Source: a bacterium
GTDB lineage: Bacteria > Zixibacteria > MSB-5A5 > WJJR01
NCBI GenBank assembly: GCA_021813505.1
Contig: JAKAKI010000038.1
Span: 651 to 64,650, forward strand
DNA: 64,000 bases
Direction of reading: 5' to 3'
How positions within the stretch are numbered: position 1 is the stretch's first letter; each line of letters opens with the position of its first letter. The notes under the pieces were generated by a model. It saw nothing but the letters and a program-made list of their open reading frames with translations. It did no database searches and was not told the origin of the DNA. This document shows positions 18,447 to 44,508 of the stretch, in pieces. The translations under genes and the position numbers were made by a program.

Positions 18447-18492
18447 TTGCCTTGCCACATCTGGCTCCTTCGCTATAACCTCAAAGAGAATC

Positions 18493-19851: not shown

Positions 19852-19867
19852 CCTGTATTTCCCGGCT

Positions 19868-20548: not shown

Positions 20549-20599
20549 AGGACTCCGCGGTCAGAAAGTGACCGTTGGGTCAACTTAACGATTGGACGG

Positions 20600-20615
20600 T
20601 TTGCATAGTTGCAAA
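20600..20615. promoter_or_regulatory. candidate TetR operator palindrome TTTGCA-TAGT-TGCAAA
   Basis: Perfect 6-bp inverted repeat 52 bp upstream of tetR start, in the divergent promoter region with the + strand gene at 20721. Confidence 0.4.
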
Positions 20616-20720
20616 AAAGAATTGGAAGTTGTCACAAACTCGAAAGAGCCGTTTTGAGCTCACACGTGAGAATCAGGCGGTTGGGCTTGCGAATTCCACG
20701 GATCATGCTTTATTTAGTAT

Positions 20721-21761: not shown

Positions 21762-21811
21762 CGGCTTGGCCGATTACCTCATGAGAATCATGGGAAGAAC
21801 GGGAGATATGA

Positions 21812-21841
21812 AGAGGCGGGAATCTTTCGGTTCCCGCCTCT
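21812..21841. terminator. bidirectional hairpin AGAGGCGGGAA-tctttcgg-TTCCCGCCTCT between convergent genes
   Basis: 10-bp perfect stem located between the stop of 20721..21761 (+) and the stop of the giant gene (21866, -). Confidence 0.55.
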
Positions 21842-21865
21842 GTGATTACTGCTTTGGCTTCCTGA

Positions 21866-24800
21866 CTATCGCTTCGGACATGGATCGCAGAGGGGCTTGC
21901 CCTGACTGAAGATGTAGGACGTTACGGCATCGACATCCTTGCGGTTCACGACTCCGTCACAGTTCACGTCGCAGCGCTGGATCGCCGGGCAGGCGCCGGT
22001 GTCATTCAGCTTCTCAGCCTCGAAAACTACAGTGCACAGAATCGCCAGGTCGCTCACCGATACCTGACCATCGGTATCGATGTCGCCCGGTGCCGGGCAC
22101 CGGCACGGATCCAACGCCATGGCGGTCATCGGCACGCTATTGGACAGTGCCGAGAGTGACCCGCCACTGCAGTTCGTTCCATCCATCCGGATGCGCACAG
22201 TCAGCGACCACTTCCACGTGTTTCCGCACACCGATTGGCACTGCACCGTCGCGCGCACGTCTTCGTTGACGGTCGGCGTGTAAACCCAATACCCGCCTAT
22301 CAGCGTTCCCAAACCTCCAGAGACATAGCAGTCGACCAGCCCAATGGCGTTTGCATATAGAGGTATCATGATCGGGATCGACGGACAGGCATGTACGGTC
22401 GTGTCAAGGACCGGCTTGCAGACCGGCTTCAGGTTATCCCGTACAAAGGAGACTGTAAACGTCCCCTCGCAGAACGCCCCGCACGAATCGGTGCAACGGA
22501 TCGTCACGGTCACCGTGTCCGGGCCGTACGGCGTGTAGTTCCAGTTGCCACGCGACGAAATCTTACCCGGTCCCGACACGATCGTGCACGACTTGAAGTT
22601 GCCGTTCGCGTCAGTCGCACTCACCGGCAGACTGATCGTTGTCGGAATGCACTGCATGATGGTTGTGTCACGAGGCAGGTTGCATATCGGCGCGATATTG
22701 CCCTCGCACGGCGGAATCAACGACCGGTAGAGGATTGTCACACGGAACTGCGAACTGCAACTGTCGCACGCATCACGGCAACGGATTTCGACCAATACTG
22801 AGGTGTCCTTCGGCGCCGACCATGTGAAGCACCACTGGCCACCGGATAACGTTCCCGCACCGCTGATCTTGGTGCAGGTTACCGCGTCTCCGTCCACATC
22901 TGTACCACTCACCGGCAGACAGATCGTCACCGGTACAGTGGTCGTTGTGATTGAGGTGTCATGCGGCACGACGCAGACCGGCGGGTTGTTCGGCGTCTTC
23001 GTGACCAGCGCCACGTCCGTAGCCATACAGCCGTTTGCCGGATTGGTGACTGTCAACGTGTACGTCCCCGCTGCGTCCACGATCGGCGTGGCTGTCGTCG
23101 GACCCGACACGATGTGACCGCCGTTCGTCGCCGCCCAGCTGAAGGTGGCGCCCGGCGTGCTCGACGCACCCGACAGCGCAATCTGCGTCACCGTGCAGGT
23201 CAGAGCCTTGTCCGGTCCCGCATCCGCGTTCGGCAGTGTGTTGTCAAGGGTCACGGTAGCCGCGTCGCTGGCCTTACAACCGGTCGCCGTCACGGTCACC
23301 GTCAGAGTGTAGGTTCCCGGCTGGTCCACCAACGGCGTCGCCGTTGTGCCACCTGAAACGATGTGTCCACCAGCGGAGGCAACCCACGAGAAGGTCACGC
23401 CCGGAGTGCTGGACGAACCACTCAAGTTGATCTGTGTGACCGAGCAATTGAGCACCTTGTCGACACCGGCGCTCACGTTCGGAGTTGTCGCGTTTCGCGT
23501 CACCAGTGCCACGTCGGTCGCAGTACAGCCGTTGGTTGGATTGGTCACGGTCAGCGTGTACGTCCCCGGCTGATCCACCAGCGGGGTCGCCGTGTTTGCT
23601 CCCGAGACGATATGGCCACCCGCCGAAGCCACCCACGAGAACGTCGCTCCCGGAGTGCTCGACGAACCACTCAGGTTGATCTGCGTCACCGAGCAGGTCA
23701 GCACCTTGTCGGCGCCCGCGTCCGCATTCGGCGCCGTGTTGTTGCGGGTCACCGAGGCGACATCGGTCGCGGTACAGCCATTGGCCGGATTCGTGACCGT
23801 CAGCGTGTACGTGCCCGGCTGGTCGATCAGCGGTGTCGCCGTCGAACCACCCGAGACGATGTGACCGCCCGCCGACGCCACCCAGGAGAATGTCGCTCCG
23901 GGCGTCGAGGACGATCCGGAGAGATTCAACTGGGTTGCGGTGCAGGTCAGAATCTTGTCGGCACCGGCATTCGCGTTCGGCGCCGTGTTATTCAAGGTGA
24001 CCAATGCCACGTCGGTCGCTTTGCAACCGTTCGTGGGATTCGTCACGGTCAGAGTGTATGTCCCCGCCGCATCCACCGTCGGTGTGGCCGTTGTGCCGCC
24101 CGAGACGATGTGGCCACCTGCGGTTGCCACCCAGGTGAAGGTGACCCCGGGTGTCGAGGAGGATCCCGAGAGATTCAATTGCGTCACGGTGCAGGTCAGC
24201 ACCTTGTCGGTACCGGCGTTCGCGTTGGGCACCGCGTTGCTCTGCACGATCGTCGCCGCACACGAATCCTTGCAGCCATTCGGCAGGAAGGTCACGACGA
24301 CCCACTTTTGACCCGGTGTGTCATAGCGTGCGCACGATGTACCCTGTCCGGACAGAGGCGCCGGACGCCAGAGATACCTCACTATCGGGGTGGTCGATTT
24401 TCCGGCATCGAACCACTGCACGCAGGCACTTGCTTGCAGGCTGTCGCAGGTCAGCGTGTCGCCAAAACACTGGAGTCCCGGTTTGAAGATATCCTGCGAG
24501 ATCGTCGCCTCGCATGAATCCTTGCAGCCCGTCGCCAGAATCGTCACGACGACTTTCTTTTGACCCGGAGTGTCGTAACGGGCCCAAGGTGTGCCCTGTC
24601 CTGAAACCGGTGCCGGGCTCCAGAAATAGCTCAATCCATTCAGAGCTTTCCCGGCAGGCAGTGAGACCGAAGCCGTTGCCAGGACACTGTCGCAAGTCAG
24701 CACATCACCGGTGCAGCGAAGCTCAGGCTTGACGGTATTCTGTGTAATCTCCGTCGAACACGAGTCGGTGCAACCGTTCGCCAGATCCGTCACGACGGCC

Positions 24801-27800
24801 CACTTCGTCCCAGGGGCATTGTATCGTGCCCACGGTGTCCCCTGTCCGCTCACTGGAGATGGCTTCCACACGATGTTGTGCGTCCCGTTCATCTTCAGGC
24901 CCGGTGTTGTCAATGTGACGCTTGCGGTCGCCAGCAGGCTGTCACAGGTCAGTTCATCTCCGGAGCAGCGCAGCGACGGCTTCTCAATGTTCTGCGTGAT
25001 CACGGCCGAACACGAATCCTTACAACCGGTCGCCAGCACTGTTACGACCACCCACTTCGTCCCGGGTGAATCGTAACGCGCACTGGGAGTGCCCTGGCCA
25101 CTGATCGGCGCGGGGCTCCAGAGGTAGGAGTACGGCGACGGATTCGGATCCTTCCCTCGTCCCGGGAAAGTGACCGTTGCCGATCCCAGCAGGCTGTCGC
25201 AGGTCAGTTCATCGCCGGAGCAACTCAAGAGCGGCTTGTCGATGCTTTGCGTGATCGTCGCTTCGCAGGAGTCTTTGCAGCCCGTCGGCAGGTACGTCAC
25301 GACGACCTTCTTCTGGCCGGGCGTGTCGTACCGCGCGTTCATTGTTCCCTGTCCCGATATCGGCGCTGGCGTCCACAGGAAGGTGTATGGTTGGATCGCC
25401 TGAGAACCGGCGGTCGGGAAGATCACTGACGCTGTCGCCAGGAGGCTATCGCACGTCAGTTCGTCACCCGAGCAGGTGAACTCAGGTTTGAACTTGTTTT
25501 CCACCACGTCCACCGTGCACGTGTCCTTACAACCCGTCGCGAGAATCGTGACCACGACATGCTTGATTCCCGGCGTGTCGTAGACGGCCTGAGTCGTCCC
25601 TTGGCCCGACAAGGGCGAGGGATCCCAGAAGTAGCTGACGCCGACACTCGGGCCGGAGTTCACCCACGCGGTCGCCTGCAAATGCGCACACGTGATCGTG
25701 TCGGCTCCGCAACTGATTTCCGGACGGCGGATGTTTTGCGTGATTGTCGCTTGGCACGAGTCTTTGCAACCGGTCGCGGTGTACATCACGACCACTTTCT
25801 TCGGACCCGGTGTGTCGTAACGCGCCCACTGCGTTCCCTGGCCGCTGACCGGTTCCGGAGTCCACAAATAGGTCACGCCATTGGACGTCTTGCCCAGGTT
25901 GAACGACACCGACGCGGTCGCCAGCAGGCTGTCGCACGTCAGCTCATCGCCGTGACAACTGATCGACGGCTTGATGATGTTCTGTGTGATCACGGACGAG
26001 CAGGAGTCTTTGCAGCCCGTCGGCATGTAGGTCACGACTACCCACTTGGTGCCCGGTGTGTCGTAACGCGCTTCGGGTGTCCCCTGGCCACTGTTCGGAG
26101 ACGGACTCCAGAGGTAGCTCCACACCGGCCCCATCGCCTTTTGCGCCGATGGGAGTGTCACCGTCGCGGATGCGAGCAGACTGTCGCAGGTCAGCTCATC
26201 GCCATTGCAGGTCAAGATCGGTTTGACGATGTCCTGCGTGATCTCCGCCGAACAGGAGTCTTTGCAGCCCGACGGCGTGTAGGTTACTACGACCCACTTG
26301 GTTCCCGGCGTGTTGTAACGCGCATCCGGGGTTCCCTGGCCGGACAACGGCTCAGGGGTCCAGTGGAAGGTGAACGGGAACGGAATCTTTGACCCGGCCG
26401 TCCCCAACTGCACGGAGGCAGTCGCTTCCAGACTGTCGCAGGTCAGTTGGTCGCCCGAACAGGAGAGGACGGGCTTGTATATGTTTTGCTGGACGTCGAC
26501 GGTGCAGGAATCCTTGCAACCAGTCGCCAGAATCGTCACAATGACTTTCTTCGGACCCGGCGTGTCGTAGACGGCCTGAGTCGTCCCCTGGCCCGACAAG
26601 GGCGAGGGATCCCAGAAGTAGCTGACGCCGACATTGGGACTCGAGTTCGCCCACGCGGTCGCCTGCGGATGCGCACACGTGATCGTGTCGGCCCCGCAAC
26701 TGATTTCCGGACGCCGGATGTTCTGCGTGATCGTCGCGTCGCACGAGTCCTTGCAACCGGTGGCGGTGTACGTTACGACGACCTTCTTCGAACCCGGTGT
26801 GTCGTAACGCGCCCACTGCGTTCCCTGGCCGCTGACCGGTTCCGGAGTCCACAGATACGTCACGCCGTTTAAGGTCTTGCTTGGATCAAACGACACCGAT
26901 GCGGTCGCCAGCAGGCTGTCGCACGTCAGCTCATCGCCGTGACAACTGATCGACGGCTTGATGATGTTCTGCGTGATCACGGACGAGCAGGAGTCTTTGC
27001 AGCCCGTCGGCATGTAGGTCACGACTACCCACTTGGTGCCCGGTGTGTCGTAACGCGCTTCGGGTGTCCCCTGGCCACTGTTCGGAGACGGACTCCAGAG
27101 GTAGCTCCACACCGGCCCCATCGCCTTTTGCGCCGATGGGAGTGTCACCGTCGCGGATGCGAGCAGACTGTCGCAGGTCAGCTCATCGCCATTGCAGGTC
27201 AAGATCGGTTTGACGATGTCCTGCGTGATCTCCGCCGAACAGGAGTCTTTGCAGCCCGACGGCGTGTAGGTTACTACGACCCACTTGGTTCCCGGCGTGT
27301 TGTAACGCGCATCCGGGGTTCCCTGGCCGGACAACGGCTCAGGGGTCCAGTGGAAGGTGAACGGGAACGGAATCTTTGACCCGGCCGTCCCCAACTGCAC
27401 GGAGGCAGTCGCTTCCAGACTGTCGCAGGTCAGTTGGTCGCCCGAACAGGAGAGGACGGGCTTGTATATGTTTTGCTGGACGTCGACGGTGCAGGAATCC
27501 TTGCAACCAGTCGCCAGAATCGTCACAATGACTTTCTTCGGACCCGGCGTGTCGTAGACGGCCTGAGTCGTCCCCTGGCCCGACAAGGGCGAGGGATCCC
27601 AGAAGTAGCTGACGCCGACATTGGGACTCGAGTTCGCCCACGCGGTCGCCTGCGGATGCGCACACGTGATCGTGTCGGCCCCGCAACTGATTTCCGGACG
27701 CCGGATGTTCTGCGTGATCGTCGCGTCGCACGAGTCCTTGCAACCGGTGGCGGTGTACGTTACGACGACCTTCTTCGAACCCGGTGTGTCGTAACGCGCC

Positions 27801-30175
27801 CACTGCGTTCCCTGACCACTGACCGGTTCCGGAGTCCACAGATACGTCACGCCGTTTAAGGTCTTGCTTGGATCAAACGACACCGATGCGGTCGCCAGCA
27901 GGCTGTCGCACGTCAGCTCATCGCCGGTGCAACTGATCGACGGCTTGATGATGTTCTGCGTGATCACGGACGAGCAGGAGTCTTTGCAGCCGGTCAGCGA
28001 GTTGGTCACTACCACCCACTTGGTACCTGGAGTGTTGTATCTCGCGAACGGCGTTCCCTGGCCACTCAACGGCTCCGGCGTCCAGTGGAATGTGTAGGTG
28101 ACCGGGATCTTAGATTGCCCGACCAGTGCCACGGAGGCGGATGCCTCTGTGCTGTCGCACGTGAGTTCGTCTCCAGAACAGTTCAACACCGGTTTGGCGA
28201 TGTTTTGCTGCACATCCACGGTGCATGTGTCTTTGCAACCCGAACTCAGGATCGTCACTACGACACGCTTGACTCCCGGCGAGCCATACACCGCCTGTGT
28301 TGTTCCCTGGCCGCTGATCGGCGCCGGCTCCCAAAGGTAGCCCACGCCTTCGCTTGGGTTTGACGTCACCCACGCCGTTGCCTGAGGCCTCGCGCAGGTG
28401 ATTGTGTCGGCTCCGCAGCTCACTTCCGGCTTACGGATGTTCTGCGTGATCGTGGCCTCGCACGAATCCTTGCAGCCGTTGGCGAGAATCGTGACAACGA
28501 CCTTTTTGGAACCGGGTGTGTCGTAACGGGCGAATCGCGTCCCCTGTCCGCTGATCGGGGTGGGACTCCAGAGATAGCTGACCCCCTCCGAGGGGTTCGA
28601 CGTCACTGCCGCGGTGGCGAGCAGGCTGTCGCAGGTCAATTCATCCCCGGTGCAAACCAGCGCGGGTTTGCGCTGATCGACCGTGACCAGTGCGGAATCC
28701 ATCGCCTTGCAGCCATTTGCCGGATTCGTTACCGTTAGAATGTACTTTCCTCCAGCATCGACAAGCGGCGTTGAGGTCGTACCTCCCGAGACGATGTGGC
28801 CGCCCTCGGTTGCGAGCCAACTGAATGTGACAGACGGAGTCGTGGAGGAGCCGGAAAGGGTCACCATAGTCTCTGAGCAGGTGATGACCTTGTCGGCGCC
28901 GGCATTCGCGTTCGGCAGTGTGATATTGCGGGTTACGAGGGCCGTATCGACGGCGGTGCAGATACAACTGACACCTTCCACCGAGGCCGTTAGATTCGAG
29001 CTGTCAAAGCCGCCGGCCTTGCTGGAGCTTGAACTGCCGAATGACCGGGTCACGGTCAGAATGTAAGTCCCCGGAGCATCGACGATGGGGGTCAGCGTGT
29101 TTGCACCGCTGACGATGTGTCCGCCCCCTGTTGCTGTCCAATGGTAGGTGCTATTCGGTGTGGAGGATGATCCTTCGAGCATAAGCTGGGTTTTATCGCA
29201 GGTCAGAACCTTGTCGGGACCGGCATCCGCTTCTGCGCCGAGATTCAAGTTGACGCTTATCGGATCAACGAAGTCCTTCAATTCCGCGGTTGGCGAATCG
29301 GACGACTTGGTGCGAATGAACACGACCGGCACGGCGATGCAGGGATTCAGATTCTTGAGCAGCTTCGTCATGTTGAGGGCGGCTTCGCCGAATGCGTTCT
29401 TCACGTATGTCGTGCTGCCGAACGCTCCGAACGGCACCCATACGGCCGAGTCGATGTTCGCCGCGGTGTACGCGGCGCCGGAGGGCGGTGTGTAGTTATG
29501 GTACTTGAATCCTGAAGGCGCGCCGCCATCGGCCTCCCAGCGCTGAACCTTGAAAATAGCCTGCGAGCCGCCATTGCTCAAATCGATGGTGATCAGGATG
29601 TCGCCGACGGTGCGTCCGCCATTGGGTCCAAGGGAGGTGAATGTGGAGTCAGGGTTCTTGACGAGCGAATTCTGGAGAAACTCGAAATCGATATAGCTCG
29701 TGCCGGTGACGGACTTGCGGTCGCCGGCGACCATCACCCAAATATTCCCGGATCCATCAACGAGCCAACTGAACAGCGCGTTATTGATGTCATCCTTCGG
29801 GGGAACGCTTCCCGCCTTCCACGTGTAGGTGTTGGGATTATCGCTGACCTTCTGGCTGGCGGCGCCGAAGACAGTCAAGTCTGCCCCGCCGTACCCATCC
29901 AGGCTGTGATAGGTCTTGGTCGGATCCACTGGAATGCCGGTGTTCGTGAGAACCGCCGTGGATGCCGCGTTGGCACCGGGCACCCAATCATTGGTGGTGC
30001 CATATGGCACACCACTGGGTGACCTGGAGAGAAGGTTCCCATCGATTCCGAATCCGGCCGCAACGCCGGGGCCTTGCGCGAAGGCGCCGGTGGTGAGGAC
30101 CAGAAACGGTATGAACGCGGTGAGCGTGGTCCGAACCGTGGACCGGATGATCCGGGGAATGTACGGGCAGGTCAT
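21866..30175 (-). CDS. giant repeat-rich cell-surface protein (2769 aa): signal peptide, ~290-aa N-terminal domain, 2 PKD-like repeats, 18 four-cysteine ~82-aa repeats, 5 PKD-like repeats, Ig-like modules, C-terminal dockerin-like EF-hand pair
   Basis: Single uninterrupted ORF. Start at ATG (MTCPYIPRIIRS...signal FIPFLVLTTGAFAQG) with GGAG SD. PKD-like units NANAGxDKVLTCxVTQxNLSGSSSTPGxTFSWVAxAGGHIVSGGxTATPxVDxxGTYTLTVTNPxNGC. Four-Cys units C.GDxLTCDSLxATASV...Y.W.PxPxSGQGT..ARYDTPGxKxVVVT...GCKDSC...ITQNI.KP. C-terminus GDIDTDGQVSVSDLAIL...CDVNCDGVVNRKDVDAVTSYIF. Confidence 0.85.
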   Translation of the reverse strand: MTCPYIPRIIRSTVRTTLTAFIPFLVLTTGAFAQGPGVAAGFGIDGNLLSRSPSGVPYGTTNDWVPGANAASTAVLTNTGIPVDPTKTYHSLDGYGGADLTVFGAASQKVSDNPNTYTWKAGSVPPKDDINNALFSWLVDGSGNIWVMVAGDRKSVTGTSYIDFEFLQNSLVKNPDSTFTSLGPNGGRTVGDILITIDLSNGGSQAIFKVQRWEADGGAPSGFKYHNYTPPSGAAYTAANIDSAVWVPFGAFGSTTYVKNAFGEAALNMTKLLKNLNPCIAVPVVFIRTKSSDSPTAELKDFVDPISVNLNLGAEADAGPDKVLTCDKTQLMLEGSSSTPNSTYHWTATGGGHIVSGANTLTPIVDAPGTYILTVTRSFGSSSSSKAGGFDSSNLTASVEGVSCICTAVDTALVTRNITLPNANAGADKVITCSETMVTLSGSSTTPSVTFSWLATEGGHIVSGGTTSTPLVDAGGKYILTVTNPANGCKAMDSALVTVDQRKPALVCTGDELTCDSLLATAAVTSNPSEGVSYLWSPTPISGQGTRFARYDTPGSKKVVVTILANGCKDSCEATITQNIRKPEVSCGADTITCARPQATAWVTSNPSEGVGYLWEPAPISGQGTTQAVYGSPGVKRVVVTILSSGCKDTCTVDVQQNIAKPVLNCSGDELTCDSTEASASVALVGQSKIPVTYTFHWTPEPLSGQGTPFARYNTPGTKWVVVTNSLTGCKDSCSSVITQNIIKPSISCTGDELTCDSLLATASVSFDPSKTLNGVTYLWTPEPVSGQGTQWARYDTPGSKKVVVTYTATGCKDSCDATITQNIRRPEISCGADTITCAHPQATAWANSSPNVGVSYFWDPSPLSGQGTTQAVYDTPGPKKVIVTILATGCKDSCTVDVQQNIYKPVLSCSGDQLTCDSLEATASVQLGTAGSKIPFPFTFHWTPEPLSGQGTPDARYNTPGTKWVVVTYTPSGCKDSCSAEITQDIVKPILTCNGDELTCDSLLASATVTLPSAQKAMGPVWSYLWSPSPNSGQGTPEARYDTPGTKWVVVTYMPTGCKDSCSSVITQNIIKPSISCHGDELTCDSLLATASVSFDPSKTLNGVTYLWTPEPVSGQGTQWARYDTPGSKKVVVTYTATGCKDSCDATITQNIRRPEISCGADTITCAHPQATAWANSSPNVGVSYFWDPSPLSGQGTTQAVYDTPGPKKVIVTILATGCKDSCTVDVQQNIYKPVLSCSGDQLTCDSLEATASVQLGTAGSKIPFPFTFHWTPEPLSGQGTPDARYNTPGTKWVVVTYTPSGCKDSCSAEITQDIVKPILTCNGDELTCDSLLASATVTLPSAQKAMGPVWSYLWSPSPNSGQGTPEARYDTPGTKWVVVTYMPTGCKDSCSSVITQNIIKPSISCHGDELTCDSLLATASVSFNLGKTSNGVTYLWTPEPVSGQGTQWARYDTPGPKKVVVMYTATGCKDSCQATITQNIRRPEISCGADTITCAHLQATAWVNSGPSVGVSYFWDPSPLSGQGTTQAVYDTPGIKHVVVTILATGCKDTCTVDVVENKFKPEFTCSGDELTCDSLLATASVIFPTAGSQAIQPYTFLWTPAPISGQGTMNARYDTPGQKKVVVTYLPTGCKDSCEATITQSIDKPLLSCSGDELTCDSLLGSATVTFPGRGKDPNPSPYSYLWSPAPISGQGTPSARYDSPGTKWVVVTVLATGCKDSCSAVITQNIEKPSLRCSGDELTCDSLLATASVTLTTPGLKMNGTHNIVWKPSPVSGQGTPWARYNAPGTKWAVVTDLANGCTDSCSTEITQNTVKPELRCTGDVLTCDSVLATASVSLPAGKALNGLSYFWSPAPVSGQGTPWARYDTPGQKKVVVTILATGCKDSCEATISQDIFKPGLQCFGDTLTCDSLQASACVQWFDAGKSTTPIVRYLWRPAPLSGQGTSCARYDTPGQKWVVVTFLPNGCKDSCAATIVQSNAVPNANAGTDKVLTCTVTQLNLSGSSSTPGVTFTWVATAGGHIVSGGTTATPTVDAAGTYTLTVTNPTNGCKATDVALVTLNNTAPNANAGADKILTCTATQLNLSGSSSTPGATFSWVASAGGHIVSGGSTATPLIDQPGTYTLTVTNPANGCTATDVASVTRNNTAPNADAGADKVLTCSVTQINLSGSSSTPGATFSWVASAGGHIVSGANTATPLVDQPGTYTLTVTNPTNGCTATDVALVTRNATTPNVSAGVDKVLNCSVTQINLSGSSSTPGVTFSWVASAGGHIVSGGTTATPLVDQPGTYTLTVTVTATGCKASDAATVTLDNTLPNADAGPDKALTCTVTQIALSGASSTPGATFSWAATNGGHIVSGPTTATPIVDAAGTYTLTVTNPANGCMATDVALVTKTPNNPPVCVVPHDTSITTTTVPVTICLPVSGTDVDGDAVTCTKISGAGTLSGGQWCFTWSAPKDTSVLVEIRCRDACDSCSSQFRVTILYRSLIPPCEGNIAPICNLPRDTTIMQCIPTTISLPVSATDANGNFKSCTIVSGPGKISSRGNWNYTPYGPDTVTVTIRCTDSCGAFCEGTFTVSFVRDNLKPVCKPVLDTTVHACPSIPIMIPLYANAIGLVDCYVSGGLGTLIGGYWVYTPTVNEDVRATVQCQSVCGNTWKWSLTVRIRMDGTNCSGGSLSALSNSVPMTAMALDPCRCPAPGDIDTDGQVSVSDLAILCTVVFEAEKLNDTGACPAIQRCDVNCDGVVNRKDVDAVTSYIFSQGKPLCDPCPKR
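25950..27860 (-). repeat. near-perfect tandem duplication of a 987-bp (329-codon, four-domain) super-repeat inside the giant gene
   Basis: ORF-track fragments are identical or 1-2 aa different at a constant +987 offset: 26352..26852 vs 27339..27839; 26370..26570 vs 27357..27557; 26447..26872 vs 27434..27859; tail of 25559..26392 vs 26939..27379. A third, diverged copy follows (to ~28.4 kb) and a diverged copy precedes (~25.0-25.9 kb). Confidence 0.9.
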
Positions 30176-30594
30176 AACAACTCCTTTGAAGCGATACGCT
30201 CCTGTACCTATGAATTCAGAATCACCAATCGTTGCTCTCCGAGTGGCGGACCAGGGACACGATGTTGACCTGATGGCATGCAAGATCACGCAACTTCAAC
30301 CCCGGCGAGACGGGGCTACCCTTCCGCCGCGAGTGAAAACTCAATGCCTGGACAGGATTCCCGATTCGGACCGGCGGAATCGACCGGCCCGAGGTCCCAG
30401 CATCGCGATCCCCGCATTTAGTATATCGTCATTACCGGAAAAACTGTGCGCCAATCAGTTCTGCCAATCTGCCGATACCCATTTTGTGACGAACTGAGCG
30501 GTACAATTCAGACACGACAGATATCGTTATCGGTCTTGGCGTTATGGAGCGCAGGATTCGCAGGCCGACAGTGGGGGATTTCTCCCATACAGAC

Positions 30595-30650: not shown

Positions 30651-33600
30651 TTACCGTTTCGGACACGGATCGCACAACGATTTCCCCTGGCGGAACATGT
30701 ATGATGTCAGGGCGTCAACGTCCTTGCGATCCACGATGCCGTCGCAGTTCACGTCGCAACGCTGGATCTCCGGACAGGAGCCAGTTGTAGTGACTGTCTC
30801 GACTCTGTAGATAACGTTGCACAAAACCGCCAGATCGCTCACCGACACCTGGCCGTCGGCATCGATGTCACCCGGCGCCGGACAGCGGCAAGGATCGGGA
30901 GCTGATGCTGTCATTGGCATGCTGACCGATGGATCGGTTGCAATGGCCGACGCACAGTTACCGTCCATCCGGACACGCACGGTCAGTGACCACTTCCACG
31001 ACTTCCCGCAGAAGGACTGGCACTGCACAGTTACCCGAACGTCCTCGTTCACCGTCGGCACGTACACCCAGAATCCGTCCGCCAATGCTCCCGGACCGGC
31101 TACTATATACGCGTTGACCATTCCGACGGCGTTTGCGTACAGTGGAATCGTGATCGGGATCTCGGCGCACGCATGTACGGTCGTGTCAAGGACCGGCTTG
31201 CAGACCGGCTTCAGGTTATCCCGCACGAAAGAAACTGTAAACGTCCCCTCGCAGAACGCCCCGCACGAATCGGTGCAACGGATCGTCACCGTCACCGTGT
31301 CCGGGCCGTAAGGCGTGTAGTTCCAGTTGCCGCGCGACGAAATCGTGCCGGGACCGGAGATGATCTTACACGACTTGAAGTTTCCGTTCGCGTCGGTGGC
31401 CGAAAGCTTCAGGCTCACGGTTGTCGGGATGCACTGCACAATCGTCGTGTCATGCGGAAGATTGCATTCCGGTGCGATGTTTCCTTCGCATGGGGATACC
31501 GGCGACTGATAGAGGATTGTCACACGGAACTGCGAACTGCAACTGTCACACGCATCGCGGCAGCGGACTCCGACCAATACTGAGGTGTCCTTCGGCGCGC
31601 TCCATGTGAAGCACCACTGGCCGCCCGACAGCGTACCCGCACCGCTGATCTTGGTGCAGGTTACCGCGTCTCCGTCCACATCTGTACCACTCACTGGCAG
31701 ACAGATCGTCACCGGTACCGTGGTCGTTGTGATCGACGTGTCATGCGGCACCACGCACACCGGCGGGTTGTTCGGCGTCTTCGTGACCAGCGCCACGTCC
31801 GTAGCCATACAGCCGTTTGCCGGATTGGTGACTGTCAACGTGTACGTCCCCGCTGCGTCCACGATCGGCGTGGCTGTCGTCGGACCCGACACGATGTGAC
31901 CGCCGTTCGTCGCCGCCCAACTGAAGGTGGCGCCCGGCGTGCTCGACGCACCCGACAGCGCAATCTGCGTGATCGTACAGGTCAGGGCCTTGTCCGGTCC
32001 CGCATCCGCGTTCGGCAGCGTGTTGTCAAGGGTCACGGTAGCCGCGTCGCTGGCCTTACAACCGGTCGCCGTCACGGTCACCGTCAGGGTGTACGTGCCC
32101 GCCTGGTCCACCAACGGCGTCGCCGTTGTGCCACCCGAGACGATATGCCCGCCACCGGAAGCGACCCAGTTGAAGGTAACTCCCTGTGTCGTCGAAGATC
32201 CGGAGAGGTTGATCGAAGTTACCGAGCAATTGAGCACCTTGTCGACACCGGCGCTCACGTTCGGGGTTGTCGCGTTTCGGGTCACCAGTGCCACGTCGGT
32301 CGCAGTACAGCCGTTGGTTGGATTGGTCACGGTCAGCGTGTACGTCCCCGGCTGATCCACCAGCGGGGTCGCTGTGTTCCCACCCGAGACGATATGGCCA
32401 CCCGCCGAAGCCACCCAGGAGAAGGTCACGCCCGGGGTGCTCGACGATCCACTCAGGTTGATCTGTGTCACCGAGCAGGTCAGCACCTTGTCGGCGCCTG
32501 CATCCGCGTTCGGTGTCGTGTTGTTGCGGGTCACCGAGGCGACATCGGTCGCGGTACAGCCGTTGGCTGGATTCGTCACCGTCAGCGTGTACGTGCCCGG
32601 CTGGTCAATCAGCGGTGTCGCCGTCGAACCACCCGAGACGATGTGGCCGCCCGCCGACGCCACCCAGGAGAATGTCGCTCCGGGCGTCGAGGACGATCCG
32701 GAGAGATTCAACTGGGTTGCGGTGCAGGTCAGAATCTTGTCGGCACCGGCGTTCGCGTTCGGTGGAGTGTTGTTTAAAGTAACCAATGCCACATCGGACG
32801 CCTTGCAACCGTTCGTAGGATTGGTCACGGTCAGCGTGTATGTCCCCGCCGCATCCACCGTCGGGGTGGCCGTTGTGCCGCCCGAGACGATGTGGCCACC
32901 CGCCGATGCCACCCAGTTGAAGGTGACCCCGGGTGTCGAGGAGGATCCCGAGAGATTCAATTGCGTCACGGTGCAGGTCAGCACCTTGTCGGTACCCGCG
33001 TTCGCATTTGGCACTGCGTTGCTCTGCACGATCGTCGCCGCACACGAATCCTTGCAACCGTTCGGCAGGAAGGTCACGATCGCCCACTTCTGTCCAGGCG
33101 TGTCATACCGTGCGCACGCCGTTCCCTGACCAGAGACCGGCTCGGGACGCCACTGGTAACTCAGGATTGGCGTGGACGTCTTCGAGGCATCGAACCAGTA
33201 CACGCAGGCAGTTCCCTGCAGACTGTCGCAGGTCAGCGTGTCGCCGAAACACTGCAATTCCGGTTTGAAGATATTCTGCGTGATTGTGGCAGCGCACGAG
33301 TCCTTGCAACCCGTTTCCGGAATGGTGATGATCACCCACTTCGTCCCCGGGGTGTCATAGCGCGCAAAGGGCGTGCCCTGACCGCTTACCGGTGACGGTT
33401 TCCACAAGTAGCTAAAGCCATTCAGTGCCTTGCCTGATTGCGGCAGATTCACTGAGGCTGTGGCCAGCACGCTGTCGCAGGTCAATTCGTCACCCGAACA
33501 GCCGAATTCCGGTGTCCTGGCGTTTTGCATGATCTCGGCGGAACATGAGTCTTTGCAGCCCGACGCCAGATCCGTCACAACCACCCACTTCGTGCCCGGC

Positions 33601-36600
33601 GTGTCGTAGCGGGCAAATGGCGTTCCCTGACCGCTCAACGGCGCAGGACTCCACACGATAATCACTGTGCCATTTGTCTTCTGGCCGGGCGCACCGATCG
33701 TGACACTCGCTGTCGCCTGCAGACTGTCGCAGGTCAGAACGTCACCCGAACAACTCAGGGACGGCTTCTCGATCTTCTGCGTGATCACGGCCGAACACGA
33801 GTCTTTGCAGCCTGTCTCCAGAACCGTTACCACAACCCACTTCGTGCCGGGACTGTCGTAACGTGCATTGGGTGTTCCCTGGCCGCTAATCGGCGCCGGA
33901 CTCCAGACATAAGAGTATACTGCCGGATTCGGATTCTTCGCCTGCTCGATGAAGTTTACCGAGGCGGACGCCAGGAGGCTGTCGCAGGTGAGTTCATCAC
34001 CGGAGCAGCTCAAGAACGGCTTGTCGATACTTTGAGTGATCGTCGCTTCGCACGAGTCCTTGCAGCCAGTCGGTCCGTACGTCACCACCACTTTCTTCTG
34101 ACCCGGCGTATCGTAACGTGCCCACGGCGTCCCCTGGCCGCTGATCGGCTCCGGACTCCATACGATGAGGAACGGAATGAACGCCTGCGATCCCGCACTC
34201 GGGAATTGCAGCGACGCGGTCGCCAGCAGGCTGTCGCAGGTCAATTCATCACCTGAGCAGATGAATTGCGGTTTGTACAAGTTCTCCTGGATGTCCACGG
34301 TGCAGGTGTCTTTGCAGCCGGATTCCAGAATCGTTACCACAACACGCTTAATTCCTGGTGTGTCGTAAACGGCCTGCGTCGTCCCCTGGCCCGACAATGG
34401 CGCCGGATCCCAGAAGTAGCTGACGCCCACGCTCGGGCCTGAGTTCACCCAGGCGGTCGCGTGTGGATGCGCGCACGTGATTGTATCCGCGCCGCATGCG
34501 ACTTCCGGGCGCCGCGTGTTCTGCGTGATGTTCGCTTCGCACGAGTCCTTGCAGCCCGTGGCGGTGAACGTCACGACGACTTTCTTCCAACCCGGCGCAT
34601 CGTAACGCGCCCACTGAGTTCCCTGGCCGCTGATCGGTTCGGGGGCCCACAGGTACGTCACGCCATTTAGTATCTTGCTTGGGTCAAACGACACCGACGC
34701 GGTCGCCAGCAGGCTGTCGCACGTCAGTTCGTCGCCATGACAACTGATCGACGGCTTGATGATGTTCTGCGTGATCACGGACGAGCAGGAGTCTTTGCAC
34801 CCTGTCGGTAGATACGTCACGACGACCCACTTAGTGCCCGGTGTGTCGTATCTCGCAAACGGAGTTCCCTGGCCACTGATCGGCGCCGGGCTCCAGAAAT
34901 AGCCCCACACATCGACGAGCAGCTTCTGCGCGTCGGTCAGATTGACCGTCGCCGAGGCCAGCAGGCTGTCGCAGGTCAGCTCATCACCGGAACAGCTTAG
35001 CAGCGGCTTGATGACATCCTGCGCGATCTCCGCCGAACACGAGTCCTTGCAACCCGACGGCGTATAGGTCACCACCACCCACTTGGTCCCCGGTGTATTG
35101 TAACGCGCCTCCTGTGTCCCCTGGCCGGAAATCGGCTCGGGAGTCCAGTAGAAGGTGAACGGGAACGGAATCTTCGATGCGGCCGACACCAACTGCACGG
35201 AGGCGGTCGCTTCCAGGCTATCGCAGGTCAATTGGTCACCCGAGCAGGAAAGGACAGGCTTGTATATGTTTTGCTGAACGTCGACGAGGCAGCTGTCTTT
35301 GCATCCCGTGGCCAGAATGGTCACAACGACAACTTTGATACCGGGGGTGTCGTAAACGGCCTGCGTGGTTCCCTGGCCGGTGATCGGAGCCGGATTCCAG
35401 AAGTAGCTCACACCTTCACTGGGACTCGAGTTCACCCAGGCGGTCGCCTGCGGATGCACACACGTGATCGTGTCGGCTCCGCAACTGATCTCCGGACGGC
35501 GGGTGTTCTGCGTGATCGTCGCTTCGCAAGAGTCTTTGCAGCCGGTTGGCGTGTAGGTCACGACGACCTTCTTCGGACCCGGGGTATCATAACGCGCCCA
35601 CGGCGTTCCCTGGCCACTCAACGGATCAGGCGACCAGAAGAAAGTGAGCGGCGGCGGAATCTTGGCGTCATCCAGTACGATGCTCACCGAAGCAGTCGCC
35701 TGCAGGCTGTCACAGGTCAATTCGTCACCGGCGCAGAGCAGTTTGGGTTTGTAGGTATCTTGAACGATGTCAACGCTGCAACTGTCTTTGCAACCGGTCG
35801 CGGCAATCGTCACGGTCACCCACTTGATGCCGGGGGAGTCGTAGACGGCCTGGCTGGTTCCCTGCCCGCTCACTGGGGCCGGATTCCAGAAGTAAGTGAT
35901 GCCTTCGACGACACTCGATTGGACTGTGGCAGTCGCCTGCAGTTTGTTGCAGGTGATTGAATCGGCGTGACAGCTCAGCTCCGGCTTGGCGATATGCTGC
36001 GTGATTTCGGCTTCGCAGGAGTCCTTGCAGCCAGAATCGAGGACGGTCACCACGACCTTCTTAAATCCCGGCGTGTCATAACGCGCCAGGTTGGTCCCCT
36101 GGCCGCTCACGGGCGCGGGCGTCCAGAAGTAACTGATGTTGGTCAGCGACTTGGATTGCCCGCCCAGTAACACCGAAGCGGTGGCCAGAAGGCTGTCGCA
36201 GGTCAGATCATCACCGGAGCAGATCGGGACCGGCTTAACAGCGTTTTGCTCGACTATCGCCTCGCACGAATCCTTGCAACCGCTGCTCAGGATCGTCACG
36301 ACGACTTTCTTGGCGCCGGGCGCGTTGTACAGAGCGTGCGAAGAGCCCTGGCCGGAAAGCGGCGCGGGGTCCCAATTGTAGCTGACCGGCTCGGTGATAT
36401 TCGTGCTGACCGAGACACTCGCCATGACCGTGTTGCAGGTCAGGGTGTCGCCCGTGCAGGTCAGATTCGGCTTGCGGATATTCTGGGTGATTGTCGCTTC
36501 ACACGAATCAACGCAGCCATTGGCCGGGTTGGTGACAATTACCCACTTGGATCCCGGAGAATCGTAGCGGGCAATCGCCGTACCCTGGCCGCTGACCGGC

Positions 36601-39600
36601 GCGGGTTTCCATTCATAGGTGACACCGACCGCCGGATTGGAGATCACCGAAGCTGTCGCCAGGAGACTGTCGCAAGTCAGGTCATCTCCCGCGCAAGTCA
36701 ACACCGGCTTGGTGCGGTCGATCGTGACGAGCGCTGTGTCGTAGGCACTACAGTGAGTTTCAGGATTCGTCACCATGAGGACATAGGTACCGGCAGCGTC
36801 CACGATCGGAGAGGGGCTCGAGGCTCCCGACACGATGTGGCCACCGGAGTACGCGCTCCAGCTAAAGTTCACACCTGGAGTCGAGGAGGAGCCGTGCAAT
36901 GTGTCCAGCGTATTGGCACAGGTCAGGACCTGGTCCGCACCGGCGTTGACGTTGGGTCTGCTGATATCCCGCGTGACCAATGCTCCATCGGTCGCGGTAC
37001 AACCGTTGGCCGGATCCGTCACTGTCAGCGTGTAGGTTCCGGGGGCGTCAACCAGCGGCGAGGCCGTGGTTGAGCCGGAGACGATGTGTCCGCCATTGGA
37101 GGCCAGCCAACTGAAGGCGGCTCCCGGCGTGGTGGAGGATCCTGAGAGGTTGACTTGAGACACTTCGCAATTGAGGAACTTGTCCGGGCCGGCATTCGCA
37201 TTCGGCTTGGAAACATTGGACGTGACCAGTGCCGTGTCGAGCTTGGTGCAGCCGTTGGCGGGATTTGTCACGGTGAGGACATACGTGCCCGCGGAATCGA
37301 CCAGCGGGGTCGCAGTGCTGCCACCGGAAACTATATGGCCGCCATCGTAGGCCGCCCAACTGAAGGTGGCACTCGGAGTGCTCGATGATCCCGCAAGATT
37401 GACCTGCACCACTATGCAATTGAGAACTTTGTCCGGACCGGCATTGGCGTTGGGAGGCGCGGTATTCGCTGTGACCAGCGCGGTATCTGCCTTCGTACAG
37501 CCATTGGCCGGGTTCGTCACGGTCAGCACATAAGTTCCGGCCGCATCCACCAGAGGCGATGCGGTCGTGCCGCCGGAGACGATATGCCCACCGGCAAACG
37601 CGCCCCAACTGAATGTCGCACCGGGCGTGCTGGAGGAACCGGACAGATTGATCTGAGTCACCAGACAGGTAAGGACTTTGTCGGCACCGGCGTTGGCATT
37701 CGGCTTGGCCGTGTCCACCGTTACAAGCGCCGTATCTTTCTTCGTGCAACCATTGGCCGGATCGGTCACGGTCAGGATATAGGTTCCGGCCGCGTCGACC
37801 AGCGGGGTTGCAGTGGAGCCACCCGACACGATGTGCCCACCCGCCGCCACCGCCCAGGAGAATGTCGCCGACGGCGTGGTTGACGAACCATCGAGATTAA
37901 CCTGAGTGACAGTGCACGTGAGAACCTTGTCCGGACCCGCGTTGGCATTCGGCTTGGCCGTGTTGACGGTGACCAATGCCGTGTCCTTATCGGTACAGCT
38001 ATTGGAAGGATCGGTAACGGTCAAAACGTAGGTGCCGGCCGCATCGACTGTCGGAGTGGCGGTCGAGCCGCCGGAGACGATGTGACCGCCGCCGGTTGCC
38101 GTCCAGGAGAAGTTGATTCCGGGGGGCGTCGACGAACCCGAGAGCTGGACCTGCGACACGAGGCAAGTCAGGGCCTTGTCTGGACCAGCATTCGCAATGG
38201 TCGGGCAAATCGGGAAGGCATGATGGCCGATGGGCGCGTTGGACGGAGTCGCAACGGTATGTTCACCATCTGAGGCCGTGAAATAGTATTGAATGCTATC
38301 GCCGGAGCAAAGCAACTGACTGGCCGGCACCGTTGCGCAGAACGTGCTGTCCGTTCGCGTGGTCGCAACTGATGTGTATGATGTTGGACCATTTCGATAG
38401 AACAAGTTCACGGTCAGCGACGCGAGCGGCGTGTCTTTGTCTGTGACCCAGGCACAAAGCTGGACATTGGTCTTGGCCTTCTGGCAGATATTGTCCAGCG
38501 CAATGGTTGGCGGCGTGCGCTTGATGACCGGCGGGGCCTTTTCGCAATAATCGCCCGTGTCGCACGGTGCGCAGGTCAAATCAGCATTCTGATGGCAGAC
38601 GACAACCTGGTGGCAATCGCCGTCGGGGATTGTATCGATGCTGTTGTAGCAGATTTTGTAGCGTGTGCACAAGCGTTCCTTGATCGCGTCGTAGATCGAA
38701 TCGAGTTCCGCGCCGCTGGGGGCATGGAAGTGCGAACCACCGGATCCATTCGACAGCGAGACCAGATAGTGCGGATCAAAGTCGCTGCCCAGACTGATGG
38801 TATAGATCGGGATTCCGGCACCGAGTGCGAGACCGACGATCAGAGTCGAGTCATCGGTGAATCCGTTGTTAGGCTGGCTGCCGTTCAAGCCGTTCGGCGT
38901 GGCCGAAGTCCCGCAGTTCTGGCTTTCGTTTTCCAGACCATCGGTGAGGGCGATGACCGCCTTGCTGCCGAGTTCGGTCGTGGTCAGGCTGACGCCCTTC
39001 CAGGTGCCGTCGAAGAAGGCTGTCCTGCCGCTGGCGGACAGGCTATTAATGCCGGAGATGAGAAGCGCCGTGTCGCTGGTGAAATTCTGGACAACGGTGT
39101 AGCAGTCTGAGAACTTGACGATCGCCGTGCGATCATAGATCGACATCGCCCGCACGAACCGGCGTGCGGCATCCTTGGCTGCGGTAATCTTGCTGTTCGT
39201 GCCCATGCTGCCCGACACGTCAATCACCAGACAGGTTGACGTGCGGCACGAATCGCCGGTAAGCTCCTGAATCGTAAACTCGCTCATCCGGAAGCCGTCC
39301 TGGTAGACGCAGAAGCTATCTGCCGGGAGGTGGGGGATTGGAAGCCCGTTGGGATCGAGCACTTCAACGTAGGTGCAAATGAGCGGGAACAAACTCGCGT
39401 CGATCGACCCCAGGAAGACATCGGAGACGCCATTGACGCTTGCCGGCGAGAGAATGGAGGTGACTTTTGCCGCGGTGGTCAACGTGGGGCGTTGCTCGAC
39501 CATGTACGGGTCATCGGGCGTGCCAAGGTTGATCATCTTCTTCTCACTGGGGGCCGCGCCCAGGGCGATGACCGAAAGCGATATGGCCGCCAGGATCGCG

Positions 39601-42774: not shown

Positions 42775-43224
42775 GCTGGAGAACTGTGCATTTCAACAAT
42801 TCCTGCAACGTGGAAGCCAAGGTTCCCAGTTGGCCTGCAAGGGTGCCACACTCGCAAGTCTGATAGGCCGGGCAGGAGTGCCCGGCCTACCAATGTCGGA
42901 ATCTACCAGTACGCCCCACGCTTGTCAGATCGAGTTCATGCCCCAACCAGCGCCTGCGACGGGTTCCCACCGGCAAGATTCACTGTTTCAGAATTCTTCG
43001 GAAAACCGGGAATAAGACAGCGCTGAAAGTGTATTAGGGGTGTCGTAACTGGGTGCCGGGACGGCGCAGTGACCGGGTTAGTGGTCAGAATCGATGTGCC
43101 CCTTCCCCGCTCGAGCACTTGGTTGGCTCGAAGAATTCATGCACAGGTCCGGATACACTCGGGCCGGTCGTTAAATCCGTTGGGACTTCACACGGAGTGT
43201 GAAGTTGGGGAAAGGACGGTTGAC

Positions 43225-44508
43225 ATGAAGAAATTCGCCTGGCCGGCCGTAGCGCTGGTCCTCCTGTGGGCTGGCGCAACGTACGCGGGGAATCCTCCCG
43301 CGGCGAATTGGGAGTCCATTCTGGCGTCATGGTCGGCGCCCGACATCATCCTGCCCCGGGCTGCCTCGGGGGACTACTCGGTGATCGTTGAATCGAAAGA
43401 TGTTCGCGCCGGGGATTCGGCACGGATCGGCATCTACCTCAAAAATGAGCAGCCGCTCGGCTCGCTGGTGATCCCGTTGGTCATTCGGTCGATCGACCCG
43501 GGGGCGTTCTGCACTTCGGCCATCCCCTCATTTGACCACACGGCAAGGATCAATGGCTATCTCAACGGGATCTACAATGGCGAGGTCATCTGGCCAGAAA
43601 TCATCAATCCCTGGCCCGACCATCCCGGGATCGGCGCACCCAGACCGCTGGACTACCTCTCCCCTGACTTCATTCTGTTCGCGAAGGGGAGGATTCTGTC
43701 TGACAACAATCTCCCAGCGGGAGATGACGGTGTTCCCGGCTCCGGCCAACCATCAATCGTCATCGATATTGTCGCGAACACCATCGCCGGACGGTTTGAA
43801 ATCGACACGGCGATGATCGCACCGGCCAATCATATCATATTCGTGTTGGGGCAAGGTGTATCCTCAGTGGGCATCGTGCCGGAGTTCACCAGGGGAGTCA
43901 TCACGATCCTTGGCGATGACGTCGCGATCGGCACCGAGGATTCTCTCGACACAGGCAGTGCGCCGACAGACACCGCCACTACCGACCCCGCAGTCGACAC
44001 TGGCGACGCGGATTCGACAGCCGGTGAAATTACCGGAGACATCGCACCACCGGCAGAGGATTCGACTTCGAGCCAGGATACCACTTCCTCGGAGCCAGCA
44101 GAGGTGACGAGACTTATCGACAAAGGACATTTCGTGATCGCTTCGGATGAAGACAGTGGCCAGAATCCGACATCCGTTATCAAAAGCAAAGGAACGGCCG
44201 GACACTCACCGGCGACTGAAAACGCGGTAACGAAGGTGTCCCTCTGCTCGAATTTCCCGAACCCATTCAACGCCGGAACTTCGATTCGGTATGCGGTGAC
44301 TGAGCACACGACGGTTGACGTGTCGGTCTATAACCTGCTGGGACAAAAAGTAGCGACAATCGCTGAGGGTTCACGGTCACCGGGCGAGTATTTCGCAATT
44401 TGGAACGCCGCCGATGGCCATGGCAGTCAGGTGGCATCGGGTATCTACTTTTATCGCGTGCAGAGCGGCAGCCGGACGGAAGTGGGCAAAATGATGCTGA
44501 TCCGGTAG
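43225..44508 (+). CDS. secreted protein with C-terminal T9SS (Por) type-A sorting domain
   Basis: Signal peptide MKKFAWPAVALVLLWAGATYAG. Acidic Thr/Asp/Ser low-complexity linker. C-terminal ~85 aa KVSLCSNFPNPFNAGTSIRYAVTEHTTVDVSVYNLLGQKVATIAEG...SGIYFYRVQSGSRTEVGKMMLIR matches the T9SS CTD consensus. Confidence 0.8.
   Translation: MKKFAWPAVALVLLWAGATYAGNPPAANWESILASWSAPDIILPRAASGDYSVIVESKDVRAGDSARIGIYLKNEQPLGSLVIPLVIRSIDPGAFCTSAIPSFDHTARINGYLNGIYNGEVIWPEIINPWPDHPGIGAPRPLDYLSPDFILFAKGRILSDNNLPAGDDGVPGSGQPSIVIDIVANTIAGRFEIDTAMIAPANHIIFVLGQGVSSVGIVPEFTRGVITILGDDVAIGTEDSLDTGSAPTDTATTDPAVDTGDADSTAGEITGDIAPPAEDSTSSQDTTSSEPAEVTRLIDKGHFVIASDEDSGQNPTSVIKSKGTAGHSPATENAVTKVSLCSNFPNPFNAGTSIRYAVTEHTTVDVSVYNLLGQKVATIAEGSRSPGEYFAIWNAADGHGSQVASGIYFYRVQSGSRTEVGKMMLIR

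Follow-up and report, generated by a model that had tools for sequence, protein, structure and literature searches.

Dockerin modules in place of a type IX sorting domain at the ends of two giant proteins of an uncultured Zixibacteria lineage

Introduction

Cohesin-dockerin pairs are familiar chiefly from Gram-positive cellulosomes, which they hold together. Comparable arrangements have also been proposed for diderm bacteria. In Candidatus Stygibacter (Cloacimonadota), dockerin-tailed secreted proteins are predicted together with a cohesin scaffoldin that bears the C-terminal domain (CTD) of type IX secretion system (T9SS) substrates (PMC8542988). A 'planctosome' has been proposed in freshwater Planctomycetes, where the anchor is a lamin-tail-domain protein and not a T9SS substrate (PMC6461901). 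In Omnitrophota, giant proteins of dockerin type have numerous dockerin/thrombospondin repeats in their interior and membrane anchors at the C-terminus (bioRxiv 10.1101/2023.11.21.568195). Here, we analyzed a stretch of 64,000 nucleotides (positions 651 to 64,650 of contig JAKAKI010000038.1, assembly GCA_021813505.1; hereafter, the window) from an uncultured Zixibacteria lineage, in which two genes encode giant proteins that both end with a dockerin module. The first-pass annotation of the window, made from the sequence alone, had pointed to these endings, and we examined what they are, how they are distributed, and what they may dock on.

Results

Two giant proteins end with a dockerin

Both giant open reading frames (ORFs) and their dockerin tails lie on the minus strand; read on the plus strand, 21866-22110 gives no meaningful translation. 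The genes and modules are as follows.

21866..30175, minus strand: giant gene 1, 2769 amino acids (ORF 21866..30289, Met start probably at 30175); a signal peptide and an unannotated N-terminal domain, then about 25 Ig/PKD-like repeats, three Cys-rich Ig-like domains, and the dockerin
30651..39671, minus strand: giant gene 2, 3006 amino acids (from the ORF list and translation); a signal peptide or anchor and a VWA domain, then Ig/PKD-like repeats, three Cys-rich Ig-like domains, and the dockerin
21869..22129, minus strand: cysteine-framed dockerin of giant 1, the last 87 residues (Pfam core 21911-22090)
22049-22084 and 21935-21970, minus strand: predicted calcium loops 1 and 2 of the giant 1 dockerin
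30654..30914, minus strand: cysteine-framed dockerin of giant 2 (Pfam core 30696-30875)
30834-30869 and 30720-30755, minus strand: predicted calcium loops of the giant 2 dockerin

The terminus of giant 1 reads ...DPCRCPAPGDIDTDGQVSVSDLAILC...CPAIQRCDVNCDGVVNRKDVDAVTSYIFSQGKPLCDPCPKR followed by the stop codon, and giant 2 has a paralogous ending. A dockerin-like EF-hand pair had been claimed at the end of both proteins in the first-pass annotation, with Dockerin_1 and EF-hand hidden Markov models (HMMs) named as one means to check it. The tails of giants 1 and 2 matched Dockerin_1 (PF00404; gathering score 22.9) with 30.3 bits (E 4.8e-07) and 33.3 bits (E 5.7e-08), respectively, which bears out the claim for both proteins. 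The match lay in the last ~60 residues and spanned profile positions 1-56 of 57 in both tails. When the full-length giants were used, the scores were 25.4 and 27.9 bits, still above the cut-off. EF-hand families of Pfam gave only scores below their own cut-offs. The second copy, claimed at 30651-30900, was located at 30654..30914 in giant 2, and the two modules were 76% identical.

Numbering the last 87 residues, loop 1 of giant 1 is D16-I-D18-T-D20-G-Q-V-S24-V-S-D27 and loop 2 is D54-V-N56-C-D58-G-V-V-N62-R-K-D65; both 12-residue loops have D, N, or S at positions 1, 3, 5, 9, and 12. From these conserved ligand positions, the loops probably bind calcium. When every ORF of the window was scanned with a regular expression, such 12-residue loops appeared in the two giants and nowhere else. 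The dockerin match is far beyond chance, and the tail has the tandem loop-helix arrangement of a dockerin.

Relatives and predicted fold of the module

A word-indexed homologue search with the last 100 amino acids returned zero matches. With the C-terminal 349 amino acids as the query, six metagenomic fragments were obtained, five of which had the same tail, and a profile built from seven tails recovered 41 further PF00404 proteins. An alignment of 31 sequences, used as an HMM, matched solved type I dockerins, the best being 4fl4_A (E 1.9e-13).

A single-sequence AlphaFold prediction of the last 120 amino acids was unusable (predicted local distance difference test score, pLDDT, 34), and a model from the 31-sequence alignment was used instead (AlphaFold2; pLDDT 81.8, predicted template modelling score 0.72). 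It contained three helices, spanning residues 25-37, 49-53, and 63-74 in the numbering used above, the first and the last of which come after loops 1 and 2, respectively. When this model was compared with the PDB using Foldseek, ranks 1-32 were all dockerins, with a probability of 1.00 for ranks 1-22 and of 0.77-0.99 for ranks 23-32. The target-normalised template modelling (TM) scores were mostly 0.73-0.89, being lower for multi-domain or atypical entries, and the root-mean-square deviations (rmsd) were 1.4-4.6 Å. Calmodulin-like matches appeared only with probabilities of 0.03 or below. A model of the C-terminus was also among the checks named in the first-pass annotation, and the T9SS-CTD beta-sandwich considered there was absent from the three-helix model. 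Because the predicted fold, the Foldseek ranks, and the HMM matches agree, we concluded that the modelled giant tail is a three-helix dockerin fold and not a T9SS beta-sandwich.

The cysteine frame

The dockerin module holds eight cysteines within its 87 residues (C9, C11, C32, C47, C53, C57, C81, and C84), arranged as CxC ... C ... CP ... C-DVN-C-DG ... CxxC, in line with the Cys-rich frame noted earlier around the EF-hand pair. The Cys at loop 2 position 4 is invariant across the 31 relatives, and at least 70% of them have a Cys just past the last helix. The pattern of the closest subfamily is CxC-P ... C-P ... D-V-N-C-D-G ... P-C-x-x-C. Because the module is Sec-exported according to its predicted signal peptide, it may reasonably be supposed that disulfides clamp it. 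C32 and C53 were considered as a covarying extra cysteine pair; this was rejected, since the homologues P0001 and P0002 carry C53 without C32.

Architecture of the giants and absence of a T9SS sorting domain

The two giant proteins were 72.8% identical across 2471 aligned residues. Pfam matches were Ig_7, K319L-like_PKD, PKD_4, and Dockerin_1 in giant 1, and VWA_2, Ig_7, K319L-like_PKD, PKD_4, and Dockerin_1 in giant 2. Ig_7 ('Ig-like domain CHU_C associated') scored 51.5 and 102.6 bits in the two giants, and the Cys-rich Ig-like domains matched Big_9 with 31.2 bits. Further features needed here are listed below.

30077..30175, minus strand: Sec signal peptide predicted for giant 1, MTCPYIPRIIRSTVRTTLTAFIPFLVLTTGAFA, the cleavage site preceding QG
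22130..22900, minus strand: three Cys-rich Ig-like domains of giant 1, directly upstream of the dockerin; repeats start with P-V-C-x-x-P-x-D-T
43225..44508, plus strand: T9SS type A substrate (ORF 43069..44508), a candidate surface anchor only; signal peptide, domain X, D/S/T-rich linker, CTD (~44254-44493)
43288-43941, plus strand: domain X of the T9SS type A substrate, ~190 residues, unannotated

Read by eye from the translation, the signal peptide of giant 1 has a basic n-region, a hydrophobic core, and an AFA motif, and the N-terminus of giant 2 is likewise signal-peptide-like. The Cys-rich Ig-like stretch was matched by the homologues P0001-P0006 and by loci L005-L015 from related genomes, including giant proteins of other Zixibacteria. 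NCBIfam gave zero family matches for the C-terminal 344-349 amino acids of the giants or for the N-terminal domain of giant 1, and an exact look-up of giant protein 2 returned no database record. Giant 2 has a VWA domain where giant 1 has its unannotated N-terminal domain, so the paralogues probably bind different things. Taken as a whole, the domain content suggests that the giants are Sec-exported, non-enzymatic multi-Ig/PKD proteins that are presumably located at the cell surface.

Two observations on giant gene 1 are given in their own right. The ~330 residues after the signal peptide (29102-30077, minus strand) have no Pfam or NCBIfam match. At 25914-27927 (minus strand) there is a near-perfect in-frame tandem duplication with a 987-bp unit of three Ig-like domains, whose two segments, 25914-26940 and 26901-27927, share 99.6% identity across 1027 nucleotides. 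Either the gene has expanded very recently, or its many repeats have misled the assembly.

The giants matched neither Por_Secre_tail (PF18962) nor CHU_C (PF13585) of Pfam nor TIGR04183 of NCBIfam, and their tail is helical in the model. ORF 43069..44508 served as the positive control for this absence: its CTD scored 29.1 bits with Por_Secre_tail (cut-off 27) and 40.2 bits with TIGR04183 (cut-off 23). Thus, both earlier statements, that the window encodes a bona fide T9SS CTD protein and that the giants carry a dockerin in place of a T9SS sorting domain, were upheld.

These results bear on the possibility that the module is no dockerin at all and represents an EF-hand-like motif that arose by chance, a degenerate T9SS CTD, or the calcium-binding end of an adhesin of the type I secretion system (T1SS; RTX-type). 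Giant adhesins of other bacteria use the T1SS, genes for an outer-membrane factor, a membrane-fusion protein, and an ABC transporter lie close by, and weak EF-hand family matches exist. Nevertheless, Dockerin_1 passed its cut-off where the EF-hand families failed, Foldseek returned dockerins ahead of any calmodulin-like structure, and the CTD search found nothing on the giants though its control passed; the chance-motif and hidden-CTD readings were rejected on these HMM, fold, and control results. The T1SS reading was rejected as well, as predicted signal peptides are present, Pfam detected no RTX repeats, and the transporters close by are an AcrB-type RND system and an ABC-2 exporter and not a HlyB/HlyD pair. 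We give next to no probability to this group of explanations.

Distribution of dockerin tails and selection on the module

The same genome is represented by the metagenome-assembled genomes (MAGs) GCA_027457265.1 and GCA_027349185.1, whose short-read contigs break within the giant genes. In a scan that used one genome per species, the nearest relative was a groundwater MAG of 'Candidatus Zixiibacteriota' (L005; 80% protein identity), which is collinear with window positions 12388-23366 at 88.6% nucleotide identity. Over the 87 dockerin codons, giant 1 and its orthologue in this MAG differed by 20 synonymous and 5 non-synonymous changes, so the module is under purifying selection.

The scan yielded 68 loci with dockerin-ending ORFs of ~80 to more than 4000 residues, mostly from Zixibacteria, from MAGs labelled Ignavibacteria, and from Planctomycetota, with several per complete genome. 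In nearly all of these ORFs, only a few residues separated the dockerin from the stop codon, and the typical tail motif was GDVNCDG ... YLINYLF.GGP.PC. One ORF of more than 4000 residues in the Zixibacteria genome MAG275 (L010) ended with the same CxC-framed tail (Dockerin_1, 31.5 bits). The first-pass annotation had called such an ending unusual for surface adhesins of the Fibrobacteres-Chlorobi-Bacteroidetes (FCB) type; this did not hold, as C-terminal dockerins are common in Zixibacteria and neighbouring MAGs. In the library searched, we found no paper coupling Zixibacteria with dockerin or cohesin.

A candidate cohesin in related giants and its bearing on attachment

Several giant ORFs of related Zixibacteria and 'Ignavibacteria' MAGs (L007, L008, L012-L015, and L040; for instance, ORF 7898-16924 of L007 and ORF 6035-9097 of L040) share the Cys-rich Ig-like domains with the window giants. 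They end with a C-terminal cassette composed of a cohesin-like module, a Cys-free dockerin, an unannotated second module, and a T9SS CTD (Por_Secre_tail). The cohesin-like module has ~190 residues and contains IGGFDFLI.YD ... WEYFTYR. After the modules had been located by motif, Pfam Cohesin (PF00963; cut-off 24.1) was matched in two of the four tested: that of L007 scored 24.9 bits over profile positions 13-47 only, and that of L013 scored 17.3 bits over positions 11-105. The three best PDB matches of a profile from seven copies were cohesins (6KGC, 6KG8, and 5LXV; E 0.036-0.11), the alignments falling at the N-terminal strands and the isYDas motif. The same motif was aligned with cohesin 2 of CipA by hhalign, with a probability of 4%. 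With moderate confidence, the cassette module may be regarded as a divergent cohesin; if it is one, cohesins would, with the same moderate confidence, exist in the phylum on T9SS-anchored proteins. Such a cohesin-like module occurs within 10 kb in ~10 of the 68 dockerin loci, and MAG275 holds both a CxC-dockerin giant (L010) and a T9SS-CTD protein with the cohesin-like module (L040). As cohesin and dockerin would sit on one T9SS-anchored polypeptide, head-to-tail assembly could occur. A direct search with CipA cohesin 2 (query verified as identical to 1ANU) by jackhmmer and phmmer gave nothing significant among all ORFs of the window and the 68 loci.

Like the first-pass annotation, we infer a cohesin-dockerin attachment mode. 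The explanation that we prefer, and hold to be somewhat probable, is non-cellulosomal docking of the giants onto a T9SS-anchored, cohesin-bearing surface protein, because homologous giants of relatives carry the cassette described above, with cohesin-like module and dockerin ahead of the T9SS tail. The giants would be exported by Sec without a T9SS CTD, and their dockerin would form a calcium-dependent, probably disulfide-stabilised plug. This plug would dock the giant non-covalently on a cohesin-bearing partner, and the partner itself would be fixed to the cell surface by the T9SS.

Several points weigh against this docking. No cohesin or SLH protein, the two kinds of partner that the first-pass annotation had proposed to look for, is encoded within the 64-kb window; cohesin modules were found in related genomes only. 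The cohesin assignment itself is borderline, with one passing partial Pfam match, PDB E values of 0.04-0.1, and the low hhalign probability (4%). The cohesins of the relatives adjoin a different, Cys-free dockerin subtype and hence need not recognise the CxC-framed one. Loop positions 10-11 are V-S in repeat 1 and R-K in repeat 2, as against the Ser-Thr pairs of Clostridium thermocellum, so binding specificity is not transferable from that organism. Peer et al. (2009) reportedly described that many genomes hold dockerins without cohesins. Finally, we know of no outer-membrane route for a Sec-signal protein that lacks a CTD in a T9SS organism.

The lack of a cohesin in the window and the small share of dockerin loci with a cohesin-like module nearby would also suit an orphan dockerin that has no protein partner and acts as a calcium/disulfide terminal cap, or as a calcium-dependent glycan or mineral binder aiding adhesion or stability; the eight cysteines, too, suggest a structural role, and dockerins in genomes that lack cohesins are widespread. 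However, cohesin modules are present in the phylum on homologous giants, the predicted fold overlays with cohesin-bound dockerins, and the dockerin is strictly C-terminal on dozens of unrelated secreted proteins in each genome, which favours docking or sorting over adhesion. An orphan role is therefore, in our judgement, unlikely.

Domain X on the T9SS substrate

The T9SS type A substrate of the window carries domain X, for which we obtained no Pfam match at E <= 10, no NCBIfam match, and no PDB match by phmmer. An exhaustive HMMER search gathered 293 representative clusters into one family; 146 reached E <= 1e-10. The domain is usually N-terminal, after the signal peptide, and often tandem, with up to seven stretches in one protein (P0062). 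Among the best 150 representatives, 82-88 had a dockerin-like tail, at least 28 had a T9SS CTD, and none had both; in a Pfam search of 100 members, Dockerin_1 was found in 24 and Por_Secre_tail in 22. CxC ahead of loop 1 was present in 26 of the 88 X-protein tails and in 4 of the 49 other dockerin ORFs, and many X-protein tails have exactly the cysteine frame of the giants (e.g., P0061). The X-domain protein of the window is encoded 3.4 kb from giant gene 2, and in L040 another adjoins a dockerin gene. The orthologue of the gene for domain X and CTD in the relative L073 retains its S9 peptidase neighbour and not the giant genes; conserved linkage of this gene with the giant genes was accordingly rejected. 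Domain X as a cohesin was also rejected, since Pfam, PDB phmmer, a 40-sequence profile against the PDB, and hhalign were all unsupportive (hhalign probabilities of 0.6% with CipA cohesin 2 and of 3.9% with the cohesin module of the Zixibacteria cassette).

These data raise a further explanation, in which domain X, and not a classical cohesin, recognises the CxC-framed dockerin and serves as a cohesin analogue on anchor and adaptor proteins. In its favour are the size of the family, its frequent tandem copies, its tails of either dockerin-like or CTD type but never both among the best 150, the enrichment of CxC in those tails, and the position of X genes near giant gene 2 and beside the dockerin gene of L040. 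On the other side stand the absence of detectable cohesin similarity, the linkage lost in L073, and the fact that the co-occurrence is explained equally by X as cargo that either tail displays: the tail pattern fits anchoring and adaptor scaffoldins and, equally, X as mere cargo. Recognition by domain X thus seems to us somewhat unlikely. Its more specific form, in which a distinct, probably disulfide-clamped dockerin subtype (CxC ... CP ... DxNCDG ... PCxxC) would dock the giants on domain X of T9SS-CTD anchors and tandem-X adaptors, we consider unlikely. If domain X were the receptor, it would represent a new cohesin analogue and a new mode of surface-layer building in diderm bacteria.

The tails of the domain X proteins also bear on the idea that a C-terminal dockerin is a sorting or export signal, which would address the giants to an outer-membrane translocation system, or let them ride on a T9SS substrate, and so replace the CTD. 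That dockerin and T9SS-CTD tails exclude each other in these proteins would agree with such a role, as would the tag-like position of the dockerin almost at the stop codon in related ORFs and the Sec signal peptides of giants that have no known outer-membrane export tag. Cellulosomal dockerins are usually C-terminal too, so the position is weak evidence for sorting. Moreover, secretion genes do not flank the giants, their neighbours being an RND efflux operon and an ABC-2 exporter, and to our knowledge there is no precedent for a dockerin as an export signal. We regard this explanation as very unlikely, and docking on a T9SS-anchored cohesin remains the one that we prefer.

Neighbouring genes in the window

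Just downstream of giant gene 1, positions 14282-20548 (minus strand) encode a TetR regulator, an outer-membrane factor, a membrane-fusion protein, and an AcrB-type pump of the resistance-nodulation-division (RND) family. This RND operon is for drug or metabolite efflux and is not a T1SS for the giants. A bacillithiol-type gene set lies at 10016-14020 (minus strand), with BshC (12389-14020), a GT4 glycosyltransferase (11092-12237), and a PIG-L deacetylase (10016-10741), which fits an organism of the FCB group. A selenocysteine locus at 6138-9784 (minus strand) comprises selB (6138-8213), selA (8301-9713), and tRNA-SeC (9688-9784, anticodon TCA). As the tRNA gene overlaps the start listed for the selA ORF, selA probably begins further downstream than listed. 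At 57919-58379 (minus strand) there are three tRNA genes (Leu-TAA, Cys-GCA, and Gly-GCC), flanked by an ORF for a PMT_2-like membrane glycosyltransferase (56071-57843) and an ORF of 635 amino acids without a Pfam family (58471-60378).

Discussion

In this study, we identified a cysteine-framed dockerin at the end of two giant proteins in an organism that has a T9SS substrate of its own. If the docking that we propose is true, T9SS organisms would display proteins indirectly: the CTD would be needed on the anchor only, and a calcium-dependent module would plug large cargo onto it. This reading raises a testable question, namely, how a CTD-less giant crosses the outer membrane. The cysteine-framed dockerin could also serve as an oxidation-stabilised docking tag. 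Because a standard pipeline names the domain and because the scheme has been proposed for other candidate phyla, these results extend a known pattern and do not open a new one.

Compared with clostridial type I dockerins (PF00404; 1OHZ_B, 2CCL_B, and 4FL4), the module has the same duplicated 22-residue segment, in which a 12-residue calcium loop is followed by a helix, and it is likewise C-terminal on a secreted protein. Its predicted three-helix fold overlays with these structures at target-normalised TM scores of 0.79-0.89 and rmsd values of 1.4-2.3 Å. In contrast to the glycoside hydrolases of Firmicutes, the carriers are non-enzymatic Ig/PKD giants of diderm Zixibacteria. The module further differs from the C. 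thermocellum dockerin in its eight-Cys frame, the aligned loop 2 position 4 being Cys here and Arg there, and from clostridial dockerins in its longer inter-repeat linker and in having V-S and R-K at loop positions 10-11 instead of repeated Ser-Thr. With regard to a cellulosome, the giants have only Ig_7, PKD, Big_9, and VWA domains besides the dockerin, and no scaffoldin is encoded in the window; they are thus unlike cellulosome components, whose dockerins are joined to catalytic or carbohydrate-binding modules and work with a scaffoldin of tandem cohesins.

Candidatus Stygibacter is, like the present organism, a diderm of the FCB superphylum with signal-peptide proteins that end in C-terminal dockerins (PMC8542988). 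Its carriers are hydrolases, peptidases, and one halomucin-like protein, and its scaffoldin has tandem cohesins and carbohydrate-binding modules (PMC8542988), whereas the carriers found here are two adhesin-like proteins of ~3000 amino acids, with no scaffoldin in the available sequence; both models are computational. The planctosome and the Omnitrophota giants share with the window giants that non-cellulosomal dockerins occur on very large secreted proteins of diderms, for the most part uncultured ones, and that attachment has been proposed for them. They belong to other phyla, and the single terminal dockerin described here differs from the internal repeats of the Omnitrophota proteins. Finally, the giants resemble the SprB/CHU-type T9SS adhesins of Bacteroidota (type B CTD, TIGR04131 / PF13585) as giant surface proteins with Ig_7 repeats and differ from them at the C-terminus, where a dockerin takes the place of the CHU_C or Por_Secre_tail CTD.

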